Translations under genes and position numbers: made by a program
The notes under the pieces: model-generated
Told to the model about the DNA's origin: nothing
Databases searched by the model: none
The model's input: only the letters and a program-made list of their open reading frames with translations
Source of the DNA: Candidatus Latescibacterota bacterium
GTDB lineage: Bacteria > Latescibacterota > UBA2968 > GCA-2709665
DNA length: 64,000 nt
Reading direction: 5' to 3'
Assembly: GCA_965226795.1 (NCBI GenBank)
Contig: CBDDDZ010000004.1
Span: 512,001 to 576,000 of the forward strand
Shown here: piece by piece, positions 32,671 through 41,885 of the stretch
Layout: the number at the start of each line of letters is the position of its first letter
Numbering within the stretch: position 1 is the stretch's first letter

Positions 32671-33408
32671 TTACAACTTGCTCACCACCAGTCGCACACG
32701 CGTCCCCTGCTTCACCTCTTCCCCGGAATCGGGCACATGCCGGATCACCACGTTCAATAGATGCTGGGTGCTGAATTCGTATCGGATATCCCGCAACTGG
32801 AGCCCGGCTTTTTCCAGCTCCGACCGTGCCGTCTCAAGCGGTTTGCCGACCAGATTCGGCATCGGGACCATCTCTCCCGGAGGCCCGTTACTTACCGTTA
32901 CCAATATCGGCGTTCCAACCTGTACCCGTTGACCCGGGAGGGGATCCTGGCTGATAATCAACCCTTCCTTGACGGTTGGAGACGCATCCTCCAGAGTATC
33001 TCCCATGGCCAGGCCGGTCTGTGCAATCCACACCTGCGCCTGACGAAGTGACTTCTCCCGAAGGTCCGGCACTTCGTACAGGCGGGTCCCGCGACTGGGC
33101 ACCGCATATACCGTCCGGTTGATTTTCACATGCGAATACGCAGGCGGGTTCTGCTGTACCAGCCTGCCTTCGGCAATCGATGCGTCCCATCGGGGCTGCT
33201 GAAGCTTCAGCTTAAGACCCCGTTGAGACAGCGCCTGGCCGGCTTCTTGGTGTGTCAGATCGACGATATCGGGTACCTCTACCCGCTGGCCGGCCCTTAC
33301 CAGACGAGGCATGATGAATCGATTGAGCAAGATCAGCGCCACAGTACCGGTGATCACCGCACAGCCTGCGAATAGCACCACCTCTCGCAGAGCCCTTTTG
33401 GCCATCAT
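32671..33408 (-). CDS. Membrane-anchored PASTA domain protein (three PASTA repeats)
   Basis: N-terminal TM; VPDIVDL, VPDLREKS and MPNLVGKP repeats; upstream of rpe. Confidence 0.88.
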   Translation of the reverse strand: MMAKRALREVVLFAGCAVITGTVALILLNRFIMPRLVRAGQRVEVPDIVDLTHQEAGQALSQRGLKLKLQQPRWDASIAEGRLVQQNPPAYSHVKINRTVYAVPSRGTRLYEVPDLREKSLRQAQVWIAQTGLAMGDTLEDASPTVKEGLIISQDPLPGQRVQVGTPILVTVSNGPPGEMVPMPNLVGKPLETARSELEKAGLQLRDIRYEFSTQHLLNVVIRHVPDSGEEVKQGTRVRLVVSKL

Positions 33409-33485: not shown

Positions 33486-33514
33486 AAAATAGGACAACAT
33501 CCCCCCGGTGTCAA
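33486..33514 (-). promoter_or_regulatory. Sigma70-like promoter for PASTA-rpe
   Basis: Minus strand TTGACA-N17-TATTTT. Confidence 0.55.
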
Positions 33515-33526
33515 GATCACACCCCC

Positions 33527-33583
33527 TTCAACGTCCCAGCGTCAAGGAAACCCGGTGTGACAACCCCAACACCGTGTGGTACA
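33527..33583. repeat. 57-bp direct repeat, left copy (att-like; duplicate of the 3' end of the gene ending at 38224)
   Basis: 54/57 identical to 38223-38279. Confidence 0.9.
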
Positions 33584-33826
33584 AAGTTCATCGGGCAGGT
33601 TCAGGTCAGGGCACGCAAATAACTTCGCCTCGGATCCGCCTTGACCTTAGTGTCCAGTTCACGGTACCTTGACTTGCAGATTGGAGTTGGTCTCGCCCCG
33701 GAATTCATCCCAGACCGCCTTAGAGGATCCAAGGGACGGCGCACTCCCGCACTGAGGCTGGAGCGCAGTGGCTGCCGGCGTACCAACGGCCGACGGTTCT
33801 GTTGAAAGGAGAGAGGTTACGGGCCA

Positions 33827-35698
33827 ATGATGAACGTGTGGAGCATCCTAACTGTTGTGCAGGCTCGGGTCCGGGTGGTCGTTCTTCTTTCCGTTCTGGC
33901 CTGGTGCGCCGGGATCACATCCGCGTTCGGCAACCTGCCGCGTCATTCCGCCGACGCCAGCAACGAGGCTTCTATCCTTTACTCGACGCCAGAGCGCGTC
34001 GCGCGGGAGATCCTGATCCATGTGGCTCCCGGTGTCATGGGGTTTCCTCCCGGCAAGGTCGCCGCAGCGTGGCACGAAATCAAGTACATTGAGCGGACGT
34101 TACGCGAATGGCTTGACAGATACGGACCGGAAGTCGTGCTCATCGCTTTTCCAGACTTCGACCCGTTAACCGACCCCGCGATGATGTCGCGTCTGGGGTA
34201 TGAGCTTACCGTCATGGATTTCAGCAGGATATACAAGGTGCGGTTCCCTCCCGGTGCGGATCGCAGCGCCATCTCCGCGGATATGGCGGATCTCCCTGGT
34301 GTCCTTTTTGCAGTGCCCAATCCGCTTGGCGTCCTGGATCCGGGCTCTTCCGGAGGCGGGCGTGCGGACATCGGAAGCGCGACAGCCAGTGATTTTGACG
34401 GCGACGGGGTGGTGGGCTTCACCGATTTCCTGGTGTTCGTGACTGCGTTTGGCAAGACGTCGGACAGCGAGGGCTTTGACACCCGGTTCGATCTGGACGG
34501 TGATGGTGCGATCGGCTTCGGCGATTTCCTGGCGTTTTCCAGTAACTTCGGCAAGGTGGTCGGCGTGAGCGGCGAGGGCATCTGCGGGCGTACGCCGCGG
34601 GTGCGTAACGGGATCCTGAGGGTGCTCCCGGACGTGGACGACTGTGCGCTGGTGACGCTGGAGCACCAGGCGACCATAGAGAGCCTGTCGCTGTTCGGTC
34701 AGGGTATCGAGGCGTTGCGGGAAGGAGACTTCGCCGGTCTTTCTAATCTGAGGGGGTTGGAGCTTTCCAACAACAGGCTCACGACGCTGCCTGAACGCAT
34801 CTTCGCGGGCCTGGACAGCCTGCGGGTCCTGGAACTGCGCCAGAACAGGCTGGCCACACTGCCCATCGACGTGTTTTCCAAGTTACACAAGCTCAAGGGC
34901 CTCGCCCTTTCCTACAACAATCTGGGTACGCTGCCGCACGGACCCTACCGCTCGGTCTTAACCCGTGGGATCTTTACCGATCTTCGCGATCTGGATCGGA
35001 TAGAGTTGCAAGACAGTGGCTTGACCTCGCTGCCGAAATGGGCTTTCGTCGGTCAGGACGACCTGCGCAGCCTCATATTGGGCGACAACAAGCTAAGCGC
35101 GCTGCCCGATGGTGCATTCCGTTATCTGAGTGATTTACAACGTCTCGATTTGAGCGGCAATAACCTGACCACCCTTTCGAAGGCCGCGTTCTCGTCTCTG
35201 AGAAACCTGAGTATACTGGACCTTAGCGATAACCCGGGCGTACCCTTTACCTTGACTTTGAGCCTGGAACGCACAGACTTTTCCGACACGACGTCACAGG
35301 GCCTCGCCGCCATAGTGGTCAAGGTGGACCAAGGCGCACCGTTTGAGATGCCCGTTAAGCTGTCGGCGCACGGTGGTACCCTGACAACCGAGACCGCGAC
35401 TGTCTGGAGGGGATCCACAACCAGTGAATCGCTTGTGGCCACACAACGTGGGGAGGAACCCGTCACGGTCAGTTTTGGGCCAGCTCCCGAGATACCCGTC
35501 AGGGGCGAGCGCCGGATCTATACGGACGCTGGAGATATCCCTCCCAACGATACGGGCAAGCGGGAGATGCGCCTTGCCTATAGGGGTATCCAGATCGCAA
35601 CCGGGTCGCCGCTTGTATTATCGGCGCCGTCCGCCAGCCCCTATCATCGGCTGTTCAAGATCCCCGTCGACAGCGTGGCGGTAGCGTCTCCGGTGTAG
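33827..35698 (+). CDS. Secreted leucine-rich-repeat protein with dockerin/EF-hand-like duplicated motif
   Basis: Hydrophobic N-terminus; DFDGDGVVGFTDF...DLDGDGAIGFGDF; typical-class LRRs (LSNLRGLELSNNRLTTLPERIFAG) after an ICGRTPRVR...DC cap. Confidence 0.85.
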   Translation: MMNVWSILTVVQARVRVVVLLSVLAWCAGITSAFGNLPRHSADASNEASILYSTPERVAREILIHVAPGVMGFPPGKVAAAWHEIKYIERTLREWLDRYGPEVVLIAFPDFDPLTDPAMMSRLGYELTVMDFSRIYKVRFPPGADRSAISADMADLPGVLFAVPNPLGVLDPGSSGGGRADIGSATASDFDGDGVVGFTDFLVFVTAFGKTSDSEGFDTRFDLDGDGAIGFGDFLAFSSNFGKVVGVSGEGICGRTPRVRNGILRVLPDVDDCALVTLEHQATIESLSLFGQGIEALREGDFAGLSNLRGLELSNNRLTTLPERIFAGLDSLRVLELRQNRLATLPIDVFSKLHKLKGLALSYNNLGTLPHGPYRSVLTRGIFTDLRDLDRIELQDSGLTSLPKWAFVGQDDLRSLILGDNKLSALPDGAFRYLSDLQRLDLSGNNLTTLSKAAFSSLRNLSILDLSDNPGVPFTLTLSLERTDFSDTTSQGLAAIVVKVDQGAPFEMPVKLSAHGGTLTTETATVWRGSTTSESLVATQRGEEPVTVSFGPAPEIPVRGERRIYTDAGDIPPNDTGKREMRLAYRGIQIATGSPLVLSAPSASPYHRLFKIPVDSVAVASPV

Positions 35699-35740
35699 CA
35701 ATTTCGCGACCACGGGAGGGGGCATGTATCCCGTTACCTG

Positions 35741-36046
35741 GTGCCGACGACATCTCCCTTGGCAGCTACGGATACGATGCGTGTTCAATTCTACGCTGGT
35801 ATCGGTGGGGATCTATGTTCCTGGTTTTCCCACTTTGACACAACACGAGTGGATTCAGGATACAACGTGAGGCTTTGGGGAATGAGGGATGACCGTCCGG
35901 ACATAGCCTGTCTTTTTATGGTGGCCGAAATGAGGGGATATCCTCCACTAGTGTTCTATCCACCTCTTCGGATTGGCACCTGGTCCTTCTTCGTGCGTCA
36001 GCCGAACGGCGCCGTCCTAAGAAGGGAGGTCGTCGTTCGAAGGTGA
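35741..36046 (+). CDS. Hypothetical small beta-rich protein or fragment (same frame as the preceding LRR gene)
   Basis: 101-aa ORF with two Cys; no convincing start or signal peptide. Confidence 0.4.
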   Translation: MPTTSPLAATDTMRVQFYAGIGGDLCSWFSHFDTTRVDSGYNVRLWGMRDDRPDIACLFMVAEMRGYPPLVFYPPLRIGTWSFFVRQPNGAVLRREVVVRR

Positions 36047-36205
36047 GCGCCAAGGATCATTGGGAAGCTTGCGACTTGCCGGTATATCCTCTAACCTTAA
36101 TTGGTCAAGGATGCAGGGCGGCGATATGGTGTGGCGTGCCGTGTTTTTAAGCCTGGGTGCGCGGGCATCTTGCCCGCGCTGATCGTCCATACGTGGAAGA
36201 GTGCA

Positions 36206-37876
36206 ATGAGACCTGCTATCTCGATCCTGTCTTGCGTCTTTGTAGTACTGGCGTCTGCAGATCCTATGACCACGTTAATTGAAACGGCCACTTCCCGGGA
36301 AACCCCCTCTTCGTCAAACAGATTTCCAGGTGATTTCGATGGGGACTTTGATGTCGACTTTGCCGATTTTTTGGCTTTCGCCGCCGTTTTCGGGTTATCG
36401 TCATCGGATGATGGATATAACGTCAATATGGACATGGACGGTAGCGGCACTATTGACTTCGGCGATTTTGTAGCTCTCGCCAATGTCTTCGGGACAACAT
36501 ACCCATCGCATTCGCTGGCGACAGACCGGGAGGCGCTGGTCGCCCTCTACAATGCGACTGATGGACCTAATTGGAGGCGTCAGGCAAACTGGCTCACCGA
36601 CAAAGACGTGTCGACATGGGAAGGTGTAACAGTTACTGACGATAGGGTCACAGATCTGCATCTTGGGGGGAATAACCTGAATGGTGCGCTGCCTCCCGCG
36701 TTGGCGGGACTATCCAATCTCCAGTCGCTGATTCTTTCCGAAAATGCGCTGACCGGGTTTATTCCGTCCGAATTGGGCAATCTATCCAACTTGGGTTATT
36801 TGGAGTTAAGTTCGAATCTATTGAGCGGACGGATCCCGCACGAATTGGGCAATCTATCCGAGATGTTTTGGTTGAAACTAAGCCGGAATCTGTTGAGCGG
36901 CCGGGTTCCACCGGAACTTGGCCGTCTCGTCAATCTCTTTGCGTTAGAGATAGACGCAAACTACAACCTGTCGGGCCAACTTCCACGCAGCCTCACACGG
37001 CTACCAGAGGTAGAGATATTTTCCTTTACCAACACTCGGGTATGTGCGCCGCGCTATCGTGCGTTTCAGGAGTGGCTTTTAGACATTCCAGATCATTCTG
37101 GCTTGCGTTGCCCTTCTCCAGGTGGGTCGTTGGCAACCGATCGAGAAGCGCTTGTGACGTTGTATCACGCAACCGGCGGGCCCAACTGGAACGACCAGAC
37201 AAATTGGCTCACTGACAAAGACCCTTCGACGTGGCACGGCATTACAGTTTTCGACGGCCGTGTGGCGCAAGTGCAGCTTCACCAGAACAACCTGAGGGGA
37301 ACGCTCTCTGCCTCGCTTGGAAACCTGACCGGTATCGAGCCTTTGCGGCTTTGGGGCAATGAGCTTACCGGCTCGATCGCGCCTGAGTTGGGCAACCTTG
37401 TCAACCTCGGAAGTCTGGCGTTGCACGACAACAAGCTCAGTGGGATTATTACCCCGGAACTGGGCAAGCTCGTTAACCTGACGATCCTATCACTTTCCGG
37501 AAACGCATTAACCGGACCGATCCCCCCCGACCTGGGAAACCTGATTCACCTTGATGAACTATCGCTCCATACGAATCAACTGAGCGGGACGATACCCGCC
37601 GAATTGGGCCGGTTGATGTACATCGTACGGATGAATCTATCGGGAAATGGGCTTGAAGGATCAATCCCGACCGATTTCGGAAAGCTCTCCGACCTGACGA
37701 CGCTGCAGGTTCACGACAATACAAACCTTACCGGAGCCCTTCCACTAAGCTTCACCATGCTCCCGTACCTGGACGAATTCTACTTCCATAACACCGGGCT
37801 ATGTGCGCCAGCAGATATCGCTTTCCAGATGTGGCTTCAGGGTGTTAGCCAATGGAATGGTGGCAGCTGCGAATAA
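36206..37876 (+). CDS. Secreted plant-type LRR protein with dockerin-like motif and two tandem LRR modules
   Basis: Signal peptide MRPAISILSC...; DFDGDFDVDFADF/DMDGSGTIDFGDF; two copies of SLATDREALV.LY.AT.GPNW..Q.NWLTDKD.STW.G; LxGxIPxELGNL repeats. Confidence 0.88.
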   Translation: MRPAISILSCVFVVLASADPMTTLIETATSRETPSSSNRFPGDFDGDFDVDFADFLAFAAVFGLSSSDDGYNVNMDMDGSGTIDFGDFVALANVFGTTYPSHSLATDREALVALYNATDGPNWRRQANWLTDKDVSTWEGVTVTDDRVTDLHLGGNNLNGALPPALAGLSNLQSLILSENALTGFIPSELGNLSNLGYLELSSNLLSGRIPHELGNLSEMFWLKLSRNLLSGRVPPELGRLVNLFALEIDANYNLSGQLPRSLTRLPEVEIFSFTNTRVCAPRYRAFQEWLLDIPDHSGLRCPSPGGSLATDREALVTLYHATGGPNWNDQTNWLTDKDPSTWHGITVFDGRVAQVQLHQNNLRGTLSASLGNLTGIEPLRLWGNELTGSIAPELGNLVNLGSLALHDNKLSGIITPELGKLVNLTILSLSGNALTGPIPPDLGNLIHLDELSLHTNQLSGTIPAELGRLMYIVRMNLSGNGLEGSIPTDFGKLSDLTTLQVHDNTNLTGALPLSFTMLPYLDEFYFHNTGLCAPADIAFQMWLQGVSQWNGGSCE

Positions 37877-38222
37877 TCTGACGGCCAAGTGCCCGGGAGT
37901 GATTCGTGGCTTATAACGGCCCTACATGCCGTTATATAGTGAGACAACTTTCTCTCCGAGTTTAATGCAGTATATTGGGCGGAGAAGTCGACAGCTCACG
38001 AGGGCGATTTGCGTTGCGGCGGCCTGCGGTTCGGACATCCATCAAGTTGCCAACACCGTTTCTATTTATCACAGATACACCTGTATAGAATTGGACACTT
38101 TAGAGGGGGTTATGTGTCGATCGGGGCAGCATGGAATGCTCCTTTTCAGATTTATTGAAGCGGGTGTGCAGGCAGTCCTGCGAATGTGTGATGTCCGTTG
38201 GAGGTGCCAAAATTGCGCGCGT

Positions 38223-38279
38223 TTCAACGTCCCAGCGTCAGCGAGACCCGGTGTGACAACCCCAACACCGTGTGGTACA
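38223..38279. repeat. 57-bp direct repeat, right copy (current 3' end of the PorV-like gene)
   Basis: Encodes YHTVLGLSHRVSLTLGR* on the minus strand. Confidence 0.9.
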
Positions 38280-39054
38280 GGGTCGCGTAGTCGATCCGGA
38301 AGCCCCTGTGAATCACACCGGCCCCCATCGACAATCGCTCCGCCCGACCCCCGGCCCCAAGCCGCAACATGACCCGGCGAGCGAAGCTGTATTCCATGCC
38401 CGCGCTTACCCCGGTTCGCCGGCCGGCCTCCTTGCGAACATCCAGCAGCAGTGCCAGATTCGGTACGACCTCGAACCCCACGCCCGCCATACCTCCCTGA
38501 CCCAGCACGTCAACCGACTGCCCGCCGGCATTCCAGGCCGAGAGCCCCAGCATCACCTGCGGACCAAGTACGATCCTCGCGCCCAGGTCAAATGCCGTCC
38601 ACGCACGTTTCGCGCCTCTCGCGATCGACAAACGCATGTGTCGAATCCTCAGCCCGAGACCCAGCCGGGATGCGACTCGAAGGCCAAATGTAACCCCGGC
38701 TGTCCGCTCCCGATAAAGGCTGAAGCCGTACTCCCGGTATCCCACACCGACTGCCGCCCTGCCCGTAGACGCAACTGTCCCGATCGCATGGGCATCTAAC
38801 ACGGCCATGCCGAACGGCCGCTCATATCCTACCGTTATGCTGACGCCCTCGCCCCATGTTACCGCGCCCGCATTCCAGAAGACTGCGTCTACGCCCGCCG
38901 CCCAGCCCACAAAGGTGTCTCCCAATCCGCCGGCACGGGCGCCCACGGGATGAAACTCGAAAGCGGCGGTGGCTGGAAAGGGAGCCACCAAAACACACAA
39001 CAATCCGAACCAACTCACGACAGTGGTCAACGCCGGGAGGAGTCGGTGCGACAC
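38224..39054 (-). CDS. PorV/FadL-like outer-membrane beta-barrel protein (start uncertain)
   Basis: Signal peptide ending ATA-AFE; VGARAGGLG...AVFWNAGA N-terminal motif; amphipathic strands; LGLSHRVSL C-terminus. Confidence 0.65.
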   Translation of the reverse strand: MSHRLLPALTTVVSWFGLLCVLVAPFPATAAFEFHPVGARAGGLGDTFVGWAAGVDAVFWNAGAVTWGEGVSITVGYERPFGMAVLDAHAIGTVASTGRAAVGVGYREYGFSLYRERTAGVTFGLRVASRLGLGLRIRHMRLSIARGAKRAWTAFDLGARIVLGPQVMLGLSAWNAGGQSVDVLGQGGMAGVGFEVVPNLALLLDVRKEAGRRTGVSAGMEYSFARRVMLRLGAGGRAERLSMGAGVIHRGFRIDYATLYHTVLGLSHRVSLTLGR

Positions 39055-39523
39055 ACCACGACAATGGCCGTACTTCAGGGGCCCGGCGTATCCCCTGACT
39101 ACGAACCGGCGTCGTTCCCCTTCACTGTAGGGGACACACCGGCGGGTTTGTTTCCACGGAAATTCCATCCTTTCCTCCATCTCGGGCAGAACCACCAATA
39201 AGCGCGAAACCCGACCGGCGCCGTAAAATACAAGCACCACTGGAGCCCGTCATTCGAGGCACCGGATCCGCGAGCTTTTTAGCGGGTTGATTCAAGACCT
39301 GTTGGTCACCGTGCCGGGCAACCACTGTTTCCTTTTCACTGCGTGGCGATATCTTCGCTACAACTTCTGTGCCAATCATTTCCCATATTTCTGTCCGTCC
39401 GCCTATCTAGTTGATTCTTCTATTGTTGGAACGGTACTCACCAGGTCTGTAGTCTCTCAAAGATCCTGGTTCCGTCATGCCGAATTAGACAGTCCACCTT
39501 CAAATTGCAGCATGAAGAAGGAC

Positions 39524-40707: not shown

Positions 40708-40833
40708 GTCGACCTGCGGAAGGTCGGAAAGCGAAGGCACTTCGACAAGCTCAGTGCGAGCAACGCAAGCAACGCGGCGGGACGGGATGAATCGGCGGAA
40801 GTATGGTGACATATTTCCGGGAAAGGTCGCTAG
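40655..40833. mobile_element. MITE-like repeat, copy 3 (left end missing)
   Basis: AGATTGCCGAAATTCGGCCGGCGAGTCGCCCGGCTCGCA ... GCACTTCGACAAGCTCAG ... GGGATGAA ... ATGGTGACATATTTCCGGGA...CTAG, matching copies 1 and 2. Confidence 0.75.
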
Positions 40834-41612
40834 TCCCTGATTCTGGTCGTCTTATCCGTAAGCGCCTGTTCGATGTGTCTGCCGGTGAAACCCACGGCGT
40901 TTCGCAGGTCGGCGCCGCGCAGGTCCGCATTCTGAAAGTTGGCTTTATAGAGGTCGGTGTTTTGCATTCGGGCCTTGACGAGCCTCGCGCACCGGAGGTC
41001 GGCCTGTACCAGGTCGGCATTCTGCAGCCTCGCACTCTGCAGATCGGCATTCCGGAGGTCCACCCCCTGAAGGTTCGCACCCTCAAGGTACGCGCCTCTC
41101 AGATTGGCGCCGCGCAGGTCGGCGTTGAGAAGATTGGCGTCCTGAAGGCGCGCCTTCCGCAGATCGGCTCCGTTAAGCGTGGTATCACGAAGGTTGGCGC
41201 CCCGCAGTGTGGCCTCCCGCAGCCGGGCGCCGGAAAGATCGGCATTCATGAGATCGGCGAGTTCCAGGTCTGCGGGCGCAAAATCGACGTTTTTGAGATT
41301 TGCGCCGCGTAATAGGGCTCGCTGAAGGCGGGCGCCGGAAAGATCGGCGTCCTGAAGGTTCGCATCGCGGAAGTTGGCTTCGTAGAGCCTGGCTCGCTGG
41401 AGATTGGCGCCGTGAAGGTCCGCATTCTGGAACCGCACGCCGCTGAGGGTGGCTTCGCTCAGGTCGGCGAATTCAAGTCTGGCATCCTGGAGTTCAGCCC
41501 TGTTCAGGTTCACGCCGCACAGGTTGGCCCGTTCTCCTTCGGTTCCTCCGGAATCGATCCACGATCGGTGCCGGTCGATGACAAACCGCAGTTCGGAAGG
41601 TGACATGGACAT
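40830..41612 (-). CDS. Pentapeptide repeat protein
   Basis: Long A(D/N)Lxx array after an N-terminal HRSW...GERANL motif. Confidence 0.92.
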   Translation of the reverse strand: MSMSPSELRFVIDRHRSWIDSGGTEGERANLCGVNLNRAELQDARLEFADLSEATLSGVRFQNADLHGANLQRARLYEANFRDANLQDADLSGARLQRALLRGANLKNVDFAPADLELADLMNADLSGARLREATLRGANLRDTTLNGADLRKARLQDANLLNADLRGANLRGAYLEGANLQGVDLRNADLQSARLQNADLVQADLRCARLVKARMQNTDLYKANFQNADLRGADLRNAVGFTGRHIEQALTDKTTRIRD

Positions 41613-41885
41613 GCCGATTTCCCGTCTGGTCTGCAAACAAGCTGTCAGCGGTCACCCCGCCAATCCAACCCTGCACAGGGAAAGACGTGAGAGGGAAGAC
41701 GGTAGAGGTGAGACGTAATAGATATCTATTAGCTATGACGCGCCTGCATTCTGAAACTCGCCGAGACGAAGCGATGAGATATTCGCTTGGTGCTAAACAA
41801 GCGCGGGTGCGAGATTCGCGGGGAGAGGCGTGGCCGTCTCCCGTCTTACGTCTACCCTCTCACCGTTTCCAGGGTTTCACCCCTG

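Follow-up and report, generated by a model that had tools for sequence, protein, structure and literature searches.

Introduction

In Escherichia coli, linear DNA with one homologous end can be trimmed and recircularised and then integrates by a RecA-dependent single crossover, which left duplications of 109-950 bp in 56 of 60 clones, whereas homology-facilitated illegitimate recombination (HFIR) leaves deletions instead (PMC3240628). A displaced gene end is described for the element e14, which has icd on one side and on the other the icdC tail, differing from it at synonymous positions (PMC13626634). Proteins with leucine-rich repeats (LRR) and WD40 repeats are known from metagenome-assembled genomes (MAGs) of sponge-associated Latescibacterota (PMC12993501). 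Here, we describe an island of about 4.6 kb in a Candidatus Latescibacterota genome, which carries two LRR protein genes and lies between two direct repeats of the 3' end of a porV-like outer membrane barrel gene. It is an integrase-free insertion that restores the tail of its target gene, probably driven by homology and of a kind that recurs in the lineage.

The window, meaning the whole stretch of 64,000 nucleotides that was analysed, covers positions 512,001-576,000 of contig CBDDDZ010000004.1 (assembly GCA_965226795.1), and coordinates are window positions unless a contig is named. G000 is the island's own genome (5.4 Mb, 96% complete), the other G numbers are genomes of relatives, and X numbers are assembled sequencing runs, all eight of which were compared as contigs. 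An earlier note, made from the letters of the window, had proposed the island and its displaced gene end, and its claims are taken up where the results bear on them.

A displaced and a replacement gene end

The direct repeats at 33527-33583 and 38223-38279 are 57 bp long and identical at 54 of 57 positions, with the three mismatches at 33545/38241, 33546/38242, and 33549/38245. All three are synonymous, the codons reading V-S-L in both copies as the earlier note had it, and the minus-strand translation of both repeats ends in ...YHTVLGLSHRVSLTLGR*, with the same 17 residues and stop. The 57-mer finds its partner in the 5.4-Mb genome with a BLASTN E value of about 5e-19 and has no third copy. 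On the gene-internal side (33550-33583), 34 bp are without mismatch, while according to the repeat finder the match extends about 20 bases beyond the stop codon at lower identity. The repeats, their target gene, and the core flank are the following.

32671..33408, minus strand: PASTA-domain gene, core flank upstream of rpe (three Pfam PASTA domains; adjoins the porV-like gene in 29/29 relatives' loci)
33486..33514, minus strand: sigma70-like promoter predicted to drive PASTA-rpe (TTGACA-17-TATTTT, 10 of 12; conserved in congeners; beside the left repeat)
33527..33583, minus strand: left repeat, the displaced last 17 codons and stop of the porV-like gene (57/57 to G008, 55/57 to G013; relatives are homologous from PASTA up to 33583 and no further)
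38203..38222, minus strand: decayed copy of the porV-PASTA spacer with a degenerate -35 box, apparently brought in with the tail (12/20 to the left spacer and 13-14/20 to 11 congeners, a count that excludes three congeners whose one-base offset spoils the ungapped comparison; then background of 3-5/20)
38223..38279, minus strand: right repeat, the replacement tail completing the porV-like gene (54/57 to the left copy, to G008, and to G013)
38224..39168, minus strand: intact gene for an outer membrane barrel of PorV/FadL fold, 314 amino acids (AlphaFold2 model, Foldseek, conservation)

Judged from these comparisons, the left copy is the displaced old gene end, and it is through the right copy that the gene is complete again. 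The left copy is taken as the old one because it is identical to G008 throughout and continuous with the conserved spacer and the PASTA promoter, which agrees with the proposal that the native end stands beside the PASTA-rpe promoter (33514-33486). The restoring role given to the right copy is borne out as well, the reading frame being intact through the 54/57 tail. Since the right repeat is followed by about 20 bases of spacer homology, the incoming homology would come to about 77 bp. The nearest windows of the porV-like gene are identical to G008 at 54-57 of 60 positions.

The target gene is present in 41/41 genomes searched (E<=0.001). The AlphaFold2 model is a 14-strand barrel with an N-terminal plug (mean predicted local distance difference test score, pLDDT, 75.9), and its best Foldseek match in the PDB is the type IX translocon chain 6h3i_F (E 7e-11, TM 0.65), which we take to be PorV, followed by TodX/FadL. 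The naming of the target as PorV-like thus holds for the fold; at the family level it does not, the score against NCBIfam PorV_fam being 46.7 bits, under the 90-bit cut-off. A PDB sequence search using the target alignment gave no match. The last strand of the modelled barrel (residues 303-313) is encoded within the repeat, suggesting that the tail matters to the protein.

The island is a real insertion. The locus was read in 29 of 40 relatives, including 14/14 congeners and 15 further genomes, and the site is empty in 29/29, with the PASTA gene within about 320 bp of the porV-like gene; the same cargo in all relatives, which the earlier note had named as a refutation of its reading, was therefore not found. 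The alignment to the two closest relatives ends at 33583 and resumes at 38223. In runs X3 and X4, from an independent study, the island is one contig of 4722 nt that reaches into both repeats and has 12 differences, and pieces of the island are present in runs from five studies, some labelled sponge metagenome.

Read depth over the island and its two flanks was 17.7 against 17.1/16.1 in X3, 8.9 against 13.5/12.4 in X4, and 8.7 against 10/8.8-12.4 in X1, where depth is not a share of cells. The run contigs break at the 34-bp identical block, a place where the joint of a circle or an empty allele could not appear. The RNA run X13 contains a contig of 151 nt (depth 2) in which 33583 is joined directly to the gene body. 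The PASTA contigs of that run show about 98% identity with the window, so the short contig faintly suggests that a very close relative has the site empty.

The cargo of the island

Between the repeats, the island is made up as follows.

33584..33826, no strand: left end of the island, unique non-coding DNA where the island meets the displaced tail (single-copy in G000 and unmatched in 21 other genomes of the family)
33827..35698, plus strand: LRR protein 1, 623 amino acids, with a signal-peptide-like start (by eye), an EF-hand/dockerin-like pair, and LRR_8 repeats (Pfam)
35741..36046, plus strand: small open reading frame (ORF) sharing the frame of LRR protein 1 (homologs adjoin the LRR paralog on G000 contig C3 and in G008)
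36093..36177, no strand: short palindromic repeat with two other genome copies, presumably of the repetitive extragenic palindromic (REP) kind
36206..37876, plus strand: LRR protein 2, 556 amino acids from the ATG, with an EF-hand/dockerin-like motif read from the sequence and two LRR blocks (Pfam LRR_1/LRR_8)
37914..37988, plus strand: left-end remnant of an IS3-family insertion sequence (IS), its transposase gone (matched 11 more times in G000; the G010 version of this element is followed by HTH_Tnp_1 and rve ORFs that are intact)
38046..38195, plus strand: dispersed non-coding repeat with a motif that may resemble an IS end (four other copies in G000, five in total; present in 2/14 congeners)

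The description as an integrase-less LRR island stands, with two LRR genes by Pfam and no PF00589 domain within. The segment 37914-37988 was considered as an integrase leader or an arm of an attachment (att) site, which is ruled out by its identity as an IS3-family end. Both LRR proteins have signal-peptide-like starts by eye. LRR protein 1 has a paralog on G000 contig C3 (50% identity across 446 amino acids), and the best non-self homologs of LRR protein 2 are 34-50% identical; the GC contents at third codon positions of the genes for LRR proteins 1 and 2 lie at the 55th and 4th percentile, respectively. The cargo families are expanded in G000, where about 40 loci carry the EF-hand/dockerin-like module. 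An assignment of the LRR proteins as secreted effectors was rejected, the NCBIfam matches being far under the cut-off and coming from the LRRs alone.

In X3 and X4, 12 of 4722 bases of the island differ from the window, compared with 2 of 4231 in the flanks. Every one of the five changes in LRR protein 2 alters a residue, and the three in LRR protein 1 are silent. These strain differences, few in number, may reflect relaxed selection or diversifying selection. The stop of LRR protein 1 (35696-36046 region) is polymorphic, being absent in X3, X4, and X7, while X8 and X1 are as the window; without it, the small downstream ORF would fuse in frame. Beside the paralog on contig C3, the domain of the small ORF occurs as tandem separate ORFs.

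Elsewhere in the window, the minus strand of 40830-41636 holds a pentapeptide-repeat-like ORF with 15-nt periodic repeats. Two CRISPR-like arrays with different repeats lie at 3.02-3.04 Mb of G000 contig C5.

Similar scars at other loci

A genome-wide screen of G000 examined 289 direct-repeat pairs, of which 28 are near-unique. Six pairs were traced through five relatives each, a selection that excludes the repeats of the type I restriction locus and further unique pairs. Four of the six show a layout like that of the island, with an integrase-free block beside a duplicated core-gene end. The names lpdA and tadA below are assumed, partly from Pfam class.

Locus B, G000 contig C2 598808-605282: 3' end of a CbiX-domain gene, repeats 36/39 identical, WD40/EF-hand cargo; native spacer at the displaced copy
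Locus C, G000 contig C4 316223-325713: 5' end of a hypothetical gene, repeats 87/87 identical, cargo of restriction type; G007 and G014 have the site near-empty
Locus H, G000 contig C5 1971025-1983961: whole tRNA-Ser(CGA) with a tadA-like tail of 171 bp, repeated 12.6 kb away; the spacer at the distal copy is foreign; G008 has this arrangement as well
Locus J, G000 contig C5 2910856-2913251: 3' end of an lpdA-like gene, 165/184, AbiEi/AbiEii-type cargo; related cargo in five congeners

Together with the island these make five loci, with duplicated ends of 39-340 bp that include both gene ends; their crossover regions have no common motif by eye. Two further pairs (C4 483023/486736 and C5 2222334/2229047) have complex maps and were excluded from the count.

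Locus C is a hotspot. Displaced fragments are carried by G000, G003, G008, and G013, with junctions at +69, +151, +48, and +117 of the gene, in that order (the +117 break is common to G008 and G013) and unrelated DNA on each cargo side. The cargo is 93-96% identical between species, compared with 83-90% for the core flanks. At locus J, five genomes share one gene-internal junction, the tail being eroded to 13-19 bp in four of them, and a sixth keeps only the distal 60 bp; a reciprocal-mosaic comparison gave no clean pattern. At locus B, nested partial spacer copies occur in G000, G003, G008, and G013.

G000 was compared with about a fifth of G008 (1.2 Mb). Among the 36 clean indels that measure at least 1 kb, this island is the single case in which a single-copy core-gene end is duplicated; two more, whose overlaps are 28 and 111 bp long, fall in tandem-paralog or repeat regions and were left uncounted. 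The duplicated-end pattern is thus recurrent, but it is not the main route of gene gain.

Origin of the island

We favour, at about an even chance, the reading that the island is a piece of a related bacterium's chromosome that was circularised and entered by one homologous crossover, without an integrase. The donor would have been the chromosome of a congener carrying both the cargo and the gene tail, a congener because the roughly 20 bp of spacer that came with the tail are of the congener type. The substrate would have been a circle whose closing joint is now the 33583/33584 junction, and host recombination would have performed the single crossover within the 34 identical bases. Presumably only tail-restoring events would be kept, because the tail is the last strand of the barrel, and only short duplications would persist, because long ones would loop out or erode.

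Since neither a donor, a circle, nor a second cargo was found for this site, the mechanism leans on the lineage-wide pattern. What favours host homologous recombination over att sites is the set of five unrelated targets, the duplications of 39 to about 340 bp, the use of both gene ends, the lack of an integrase, and the four breakpoints at locus C, which a fixed att core would not give. Other points in favour are the empty site in all relatives' loci read, the homology that continues past the stop into the spacer, the cargo at locus C, which is more similar between species than the core flanks, the scarcity of recombinases in the genus, and a ComEC-type gene in G000; the E. coli system of PMC3240628 is the closest experimental precedent. 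A duplicated chromosomal anchor without an element recombinase, as in Campbell-type integration, is seen at this island, while variable anchor lengths and breakpoints are seen at the lineage level only, where erosion may contribute.

Several points weigh against this reading. Neither congeners, family genomes, nor metagenome and viral contigs gave a donor or a second cargo. A perfect identity of 34 bp is short for RecA, and all but the two closest congeners have several mismatches to this block, so a suitable donor would have to be unsampled. The three differences between the repeats are what species divergence alone would produce, and the coding changes by themselves therefore do not prove a foreign tail. 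The junction common to five genomes at locus J also fits site-specific integration, tail erosion could imitate variable breakpoints, and the core holds a weak dyad by eye (CGGTGTG-8-AACACCG). The pattern is uncommon, as the single case among 36 indels shows, and no Ku, which could have helped to close a circle, was found in G000 (96% complete).

The donor search compared the island with 14 congeners, where the matches listed (150 of 320) included only repeats, IS ends, and paralogs, and compared its left 867 bp with 21 family genomes, where only the EF-hand-like module and one 68% stretch were found. No integrase-bearing or other second occupant of the site was present among the 29 loci and the metagenome scan, one cargo being all that was seen.

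A second explanation, which we consider rather unlikely, is that the island is the relic of a site-specific integrative element of the kind that e14 and phage 21 represent in icd. Such an element would have cut near 33550-33583, its attP would have supplied the synonymous tail, and its integrase would have been deleted later or have acted in trans. Perfect identity on the gene-internal side with mismatches toward the stop, as found here, is the usual att pattern. The regenerated target, the displaced fragment at the far end, and the empty site in relatives are likewise what such an element leaves, as is an intervening block flanked by a tail with synonymous differences, the arrangement described above for e14. 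The decayed right end with its IS remnants is where an integrase could have stood, and the junction common to several genomes at locus J, with its eroded tails, can be read in the same way.

The distribution of recombinases speaks against this relic. G000 has four PF00589 hits, none inside the island and none at any of the five duplicated-end loci. The occupied stretches examined in relatives contain no PF00589 except a sub-threshold hit of 22.5 bits about 8 kb past the tRNA-Ser block of G008. Within the genus, 8/15 genomes have just two PF00589 hits, which we infer to be XerC/D, and the others have one to three more, several of them fragments. The large serine recombinase domain PF07508 is absent from 15/15 genus genomes and PF00239 from G000. 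The extra tyrosine recombinases (three from G001, G010, and G006, and one on G000 contig C5) lie in other regions with restriction-type genes, away from the five loci. Five unrelated targets would thus require five lost integrases, and the four breakpoints within one gene at locus C also disagree with the relic. A degenerate-pattern scan for the repeat core gave 0 matches in viral contigs, and an exact degenerate-pattern scan of metagenome contigs for other occupants of the site gave one locus, which is empty, so the link from the 57-mer to integrases that the earlier note had suggested looking for did not appear.

At about 2.31-2.36 Mb of G000 contig C5, a repeat array bounded by TAACGTT...GTTA lies beside a tyrosine recombinase gene and is integron-like. 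An integron-like recombinase elsewhere in the genome counts in favour of the relic.

The earlier note had seen in the locus an unusual att site, mobilised in trans or by homologous exchange at a variable-cassette locus. A dedicated att site mobilised in trans is not supported, with no phage match, no second occupant, few recombinases, and variable breakpoints at a sister locus. Of the second option, the homologous exchange comes close to our best reading; variable cassettes are seen at sister loci, but this site has one cargo.

The third explanation, in which linear donor DNA recombined homologously within the porV-like gene body and was joined illegitimately at 33583, would be HFIR as proposed for rhs/vgrG, and we regard it as distinctly improbable. 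It yields the same final map, agrees with a left copy that is wholly recipient-like (57/57 to G008), and could draw on the ComEC-type gene present in G000; pairs of homologous and illegitimate events are described to leave orphaned 3' ends at rhs/vgrG loci (PMC8125069). However, HFIR mostly deletes and does not duplicate (PMC3240628), the join must fall within a stretch that the donor also matches, and no microhomology is seen by eye at the junction.

Still less probable, and by a wide measure doubtful, is a duplication of 77 bp made in place during the insertion, such as a long IS-mediated target duplication, with later divergence of the copies. The IS3-family remnant adjoins the right copy, and three differences from G008 in 57 bp match the species divergence of the gene. 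Against this, the left tail, now non-coding, is undecayed (57 of 57 positions as in G008), whereas 8/20 bases of the right spacer are gone, and 77 bp far exceeds the target duplications of IS3 elements, which are 3-4 bp. IS ends at both boundaries with a short target duplication, as in a composite or IS3 transposon, were not found at the island, where the IS remnant is internal, the left boundary is unique, and the duplication is at least 57 bp. An assembly artefact, also raised in the earlier note and favoured by nothing beyond the existence of a repeat, is practically out of the question given the single contig spanning the island in X3 and X4 and its pieces in runs of five studies.

A possible host-run route of gene gain

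Taken by itself, the locus is modest, being one insertion of known architecture. More tentatively than the circular entry of this one island, and somewhat short of an even chance, we propose that a genus nearly free of integrases builds its accessory genome by an additive, host-run route, in which fragments from congeners circularise and integrate repeatedly at either end of core genes. Accessory LRR, WD40/EF-hand, restriction, and toxin-antitoxin cassettes would then be gained in this way, giving sponge symbionts a concrete route to gain or swap eukaryote-like repeat proteins. Displaced tails would mark the donor and the order of events, and short displaced gene ends would form a datable record of exchange between species. 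A gene regenerated next to its old, displaced tail is usually taken as the mark of an integrase. If host recombination can leave that mark at ordinary core genes, many integrase-less islands would need no lost integrase. Island finders that rely on integrases would overlook such a route or misinterpret it.

Comparison with known systems

The literature searched, whose coverage leaves out most subscription papers, gave no report of the pattern in this lineage. The cargo resembles the repeat proteins described for sponge symbionts (PMC12993501) and belongs to families with many paralogs in G000. In the main text of that source, the terms "genomic island", "transposase", and "horizontal" occur 0 times, and the route by which repeat genes are gained is not treated.

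Among described insertions, e14 and phage 21 in the E. coli icd gene are alike in position and outcome, the insertion lying near the 3' end, with a near-synonymous tail that restores the gene and an old tail that is displaced (PMC13626634, PMC12540744). Those elements excise by an inducible site-specific system. The island lacks an integrase; phage genes, which e14 and phage 21 carry, are missing from it as well, and the breakpoint at a sister locus is not fixed.

The E. coli integration system with linear DNA also lacks an element recombinase and duplicates its homologous anchor to a variable extent (109-950 bp; PMC3240628). An engineered plasmid was used there, while the island is a cassette in a natural chromosome, has only 34 bp without mismatch, and has the circle as a proposed intermediate.

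The H47 island of E. coli (PMC5426353) is likewise small, with imperfect direct repeats and no recombinase. It recombines at several homology blocks via host functions, and its mobility was demonstrated by polymerase chain reaction and is RecA-independent, whereas the island described here is known from its sequence.

In the C-terminal displacement of rhs/vgrG genes (PMC8125069), the old 3' end is displaced and new DNA is inserted, in a process that can be repeated into arrays. There, the new tail changes the protein by giving it a new toxin tip, whereas the product of the porV-like gene stays the same and what is added is unrelated cargo following a conserved core gene.

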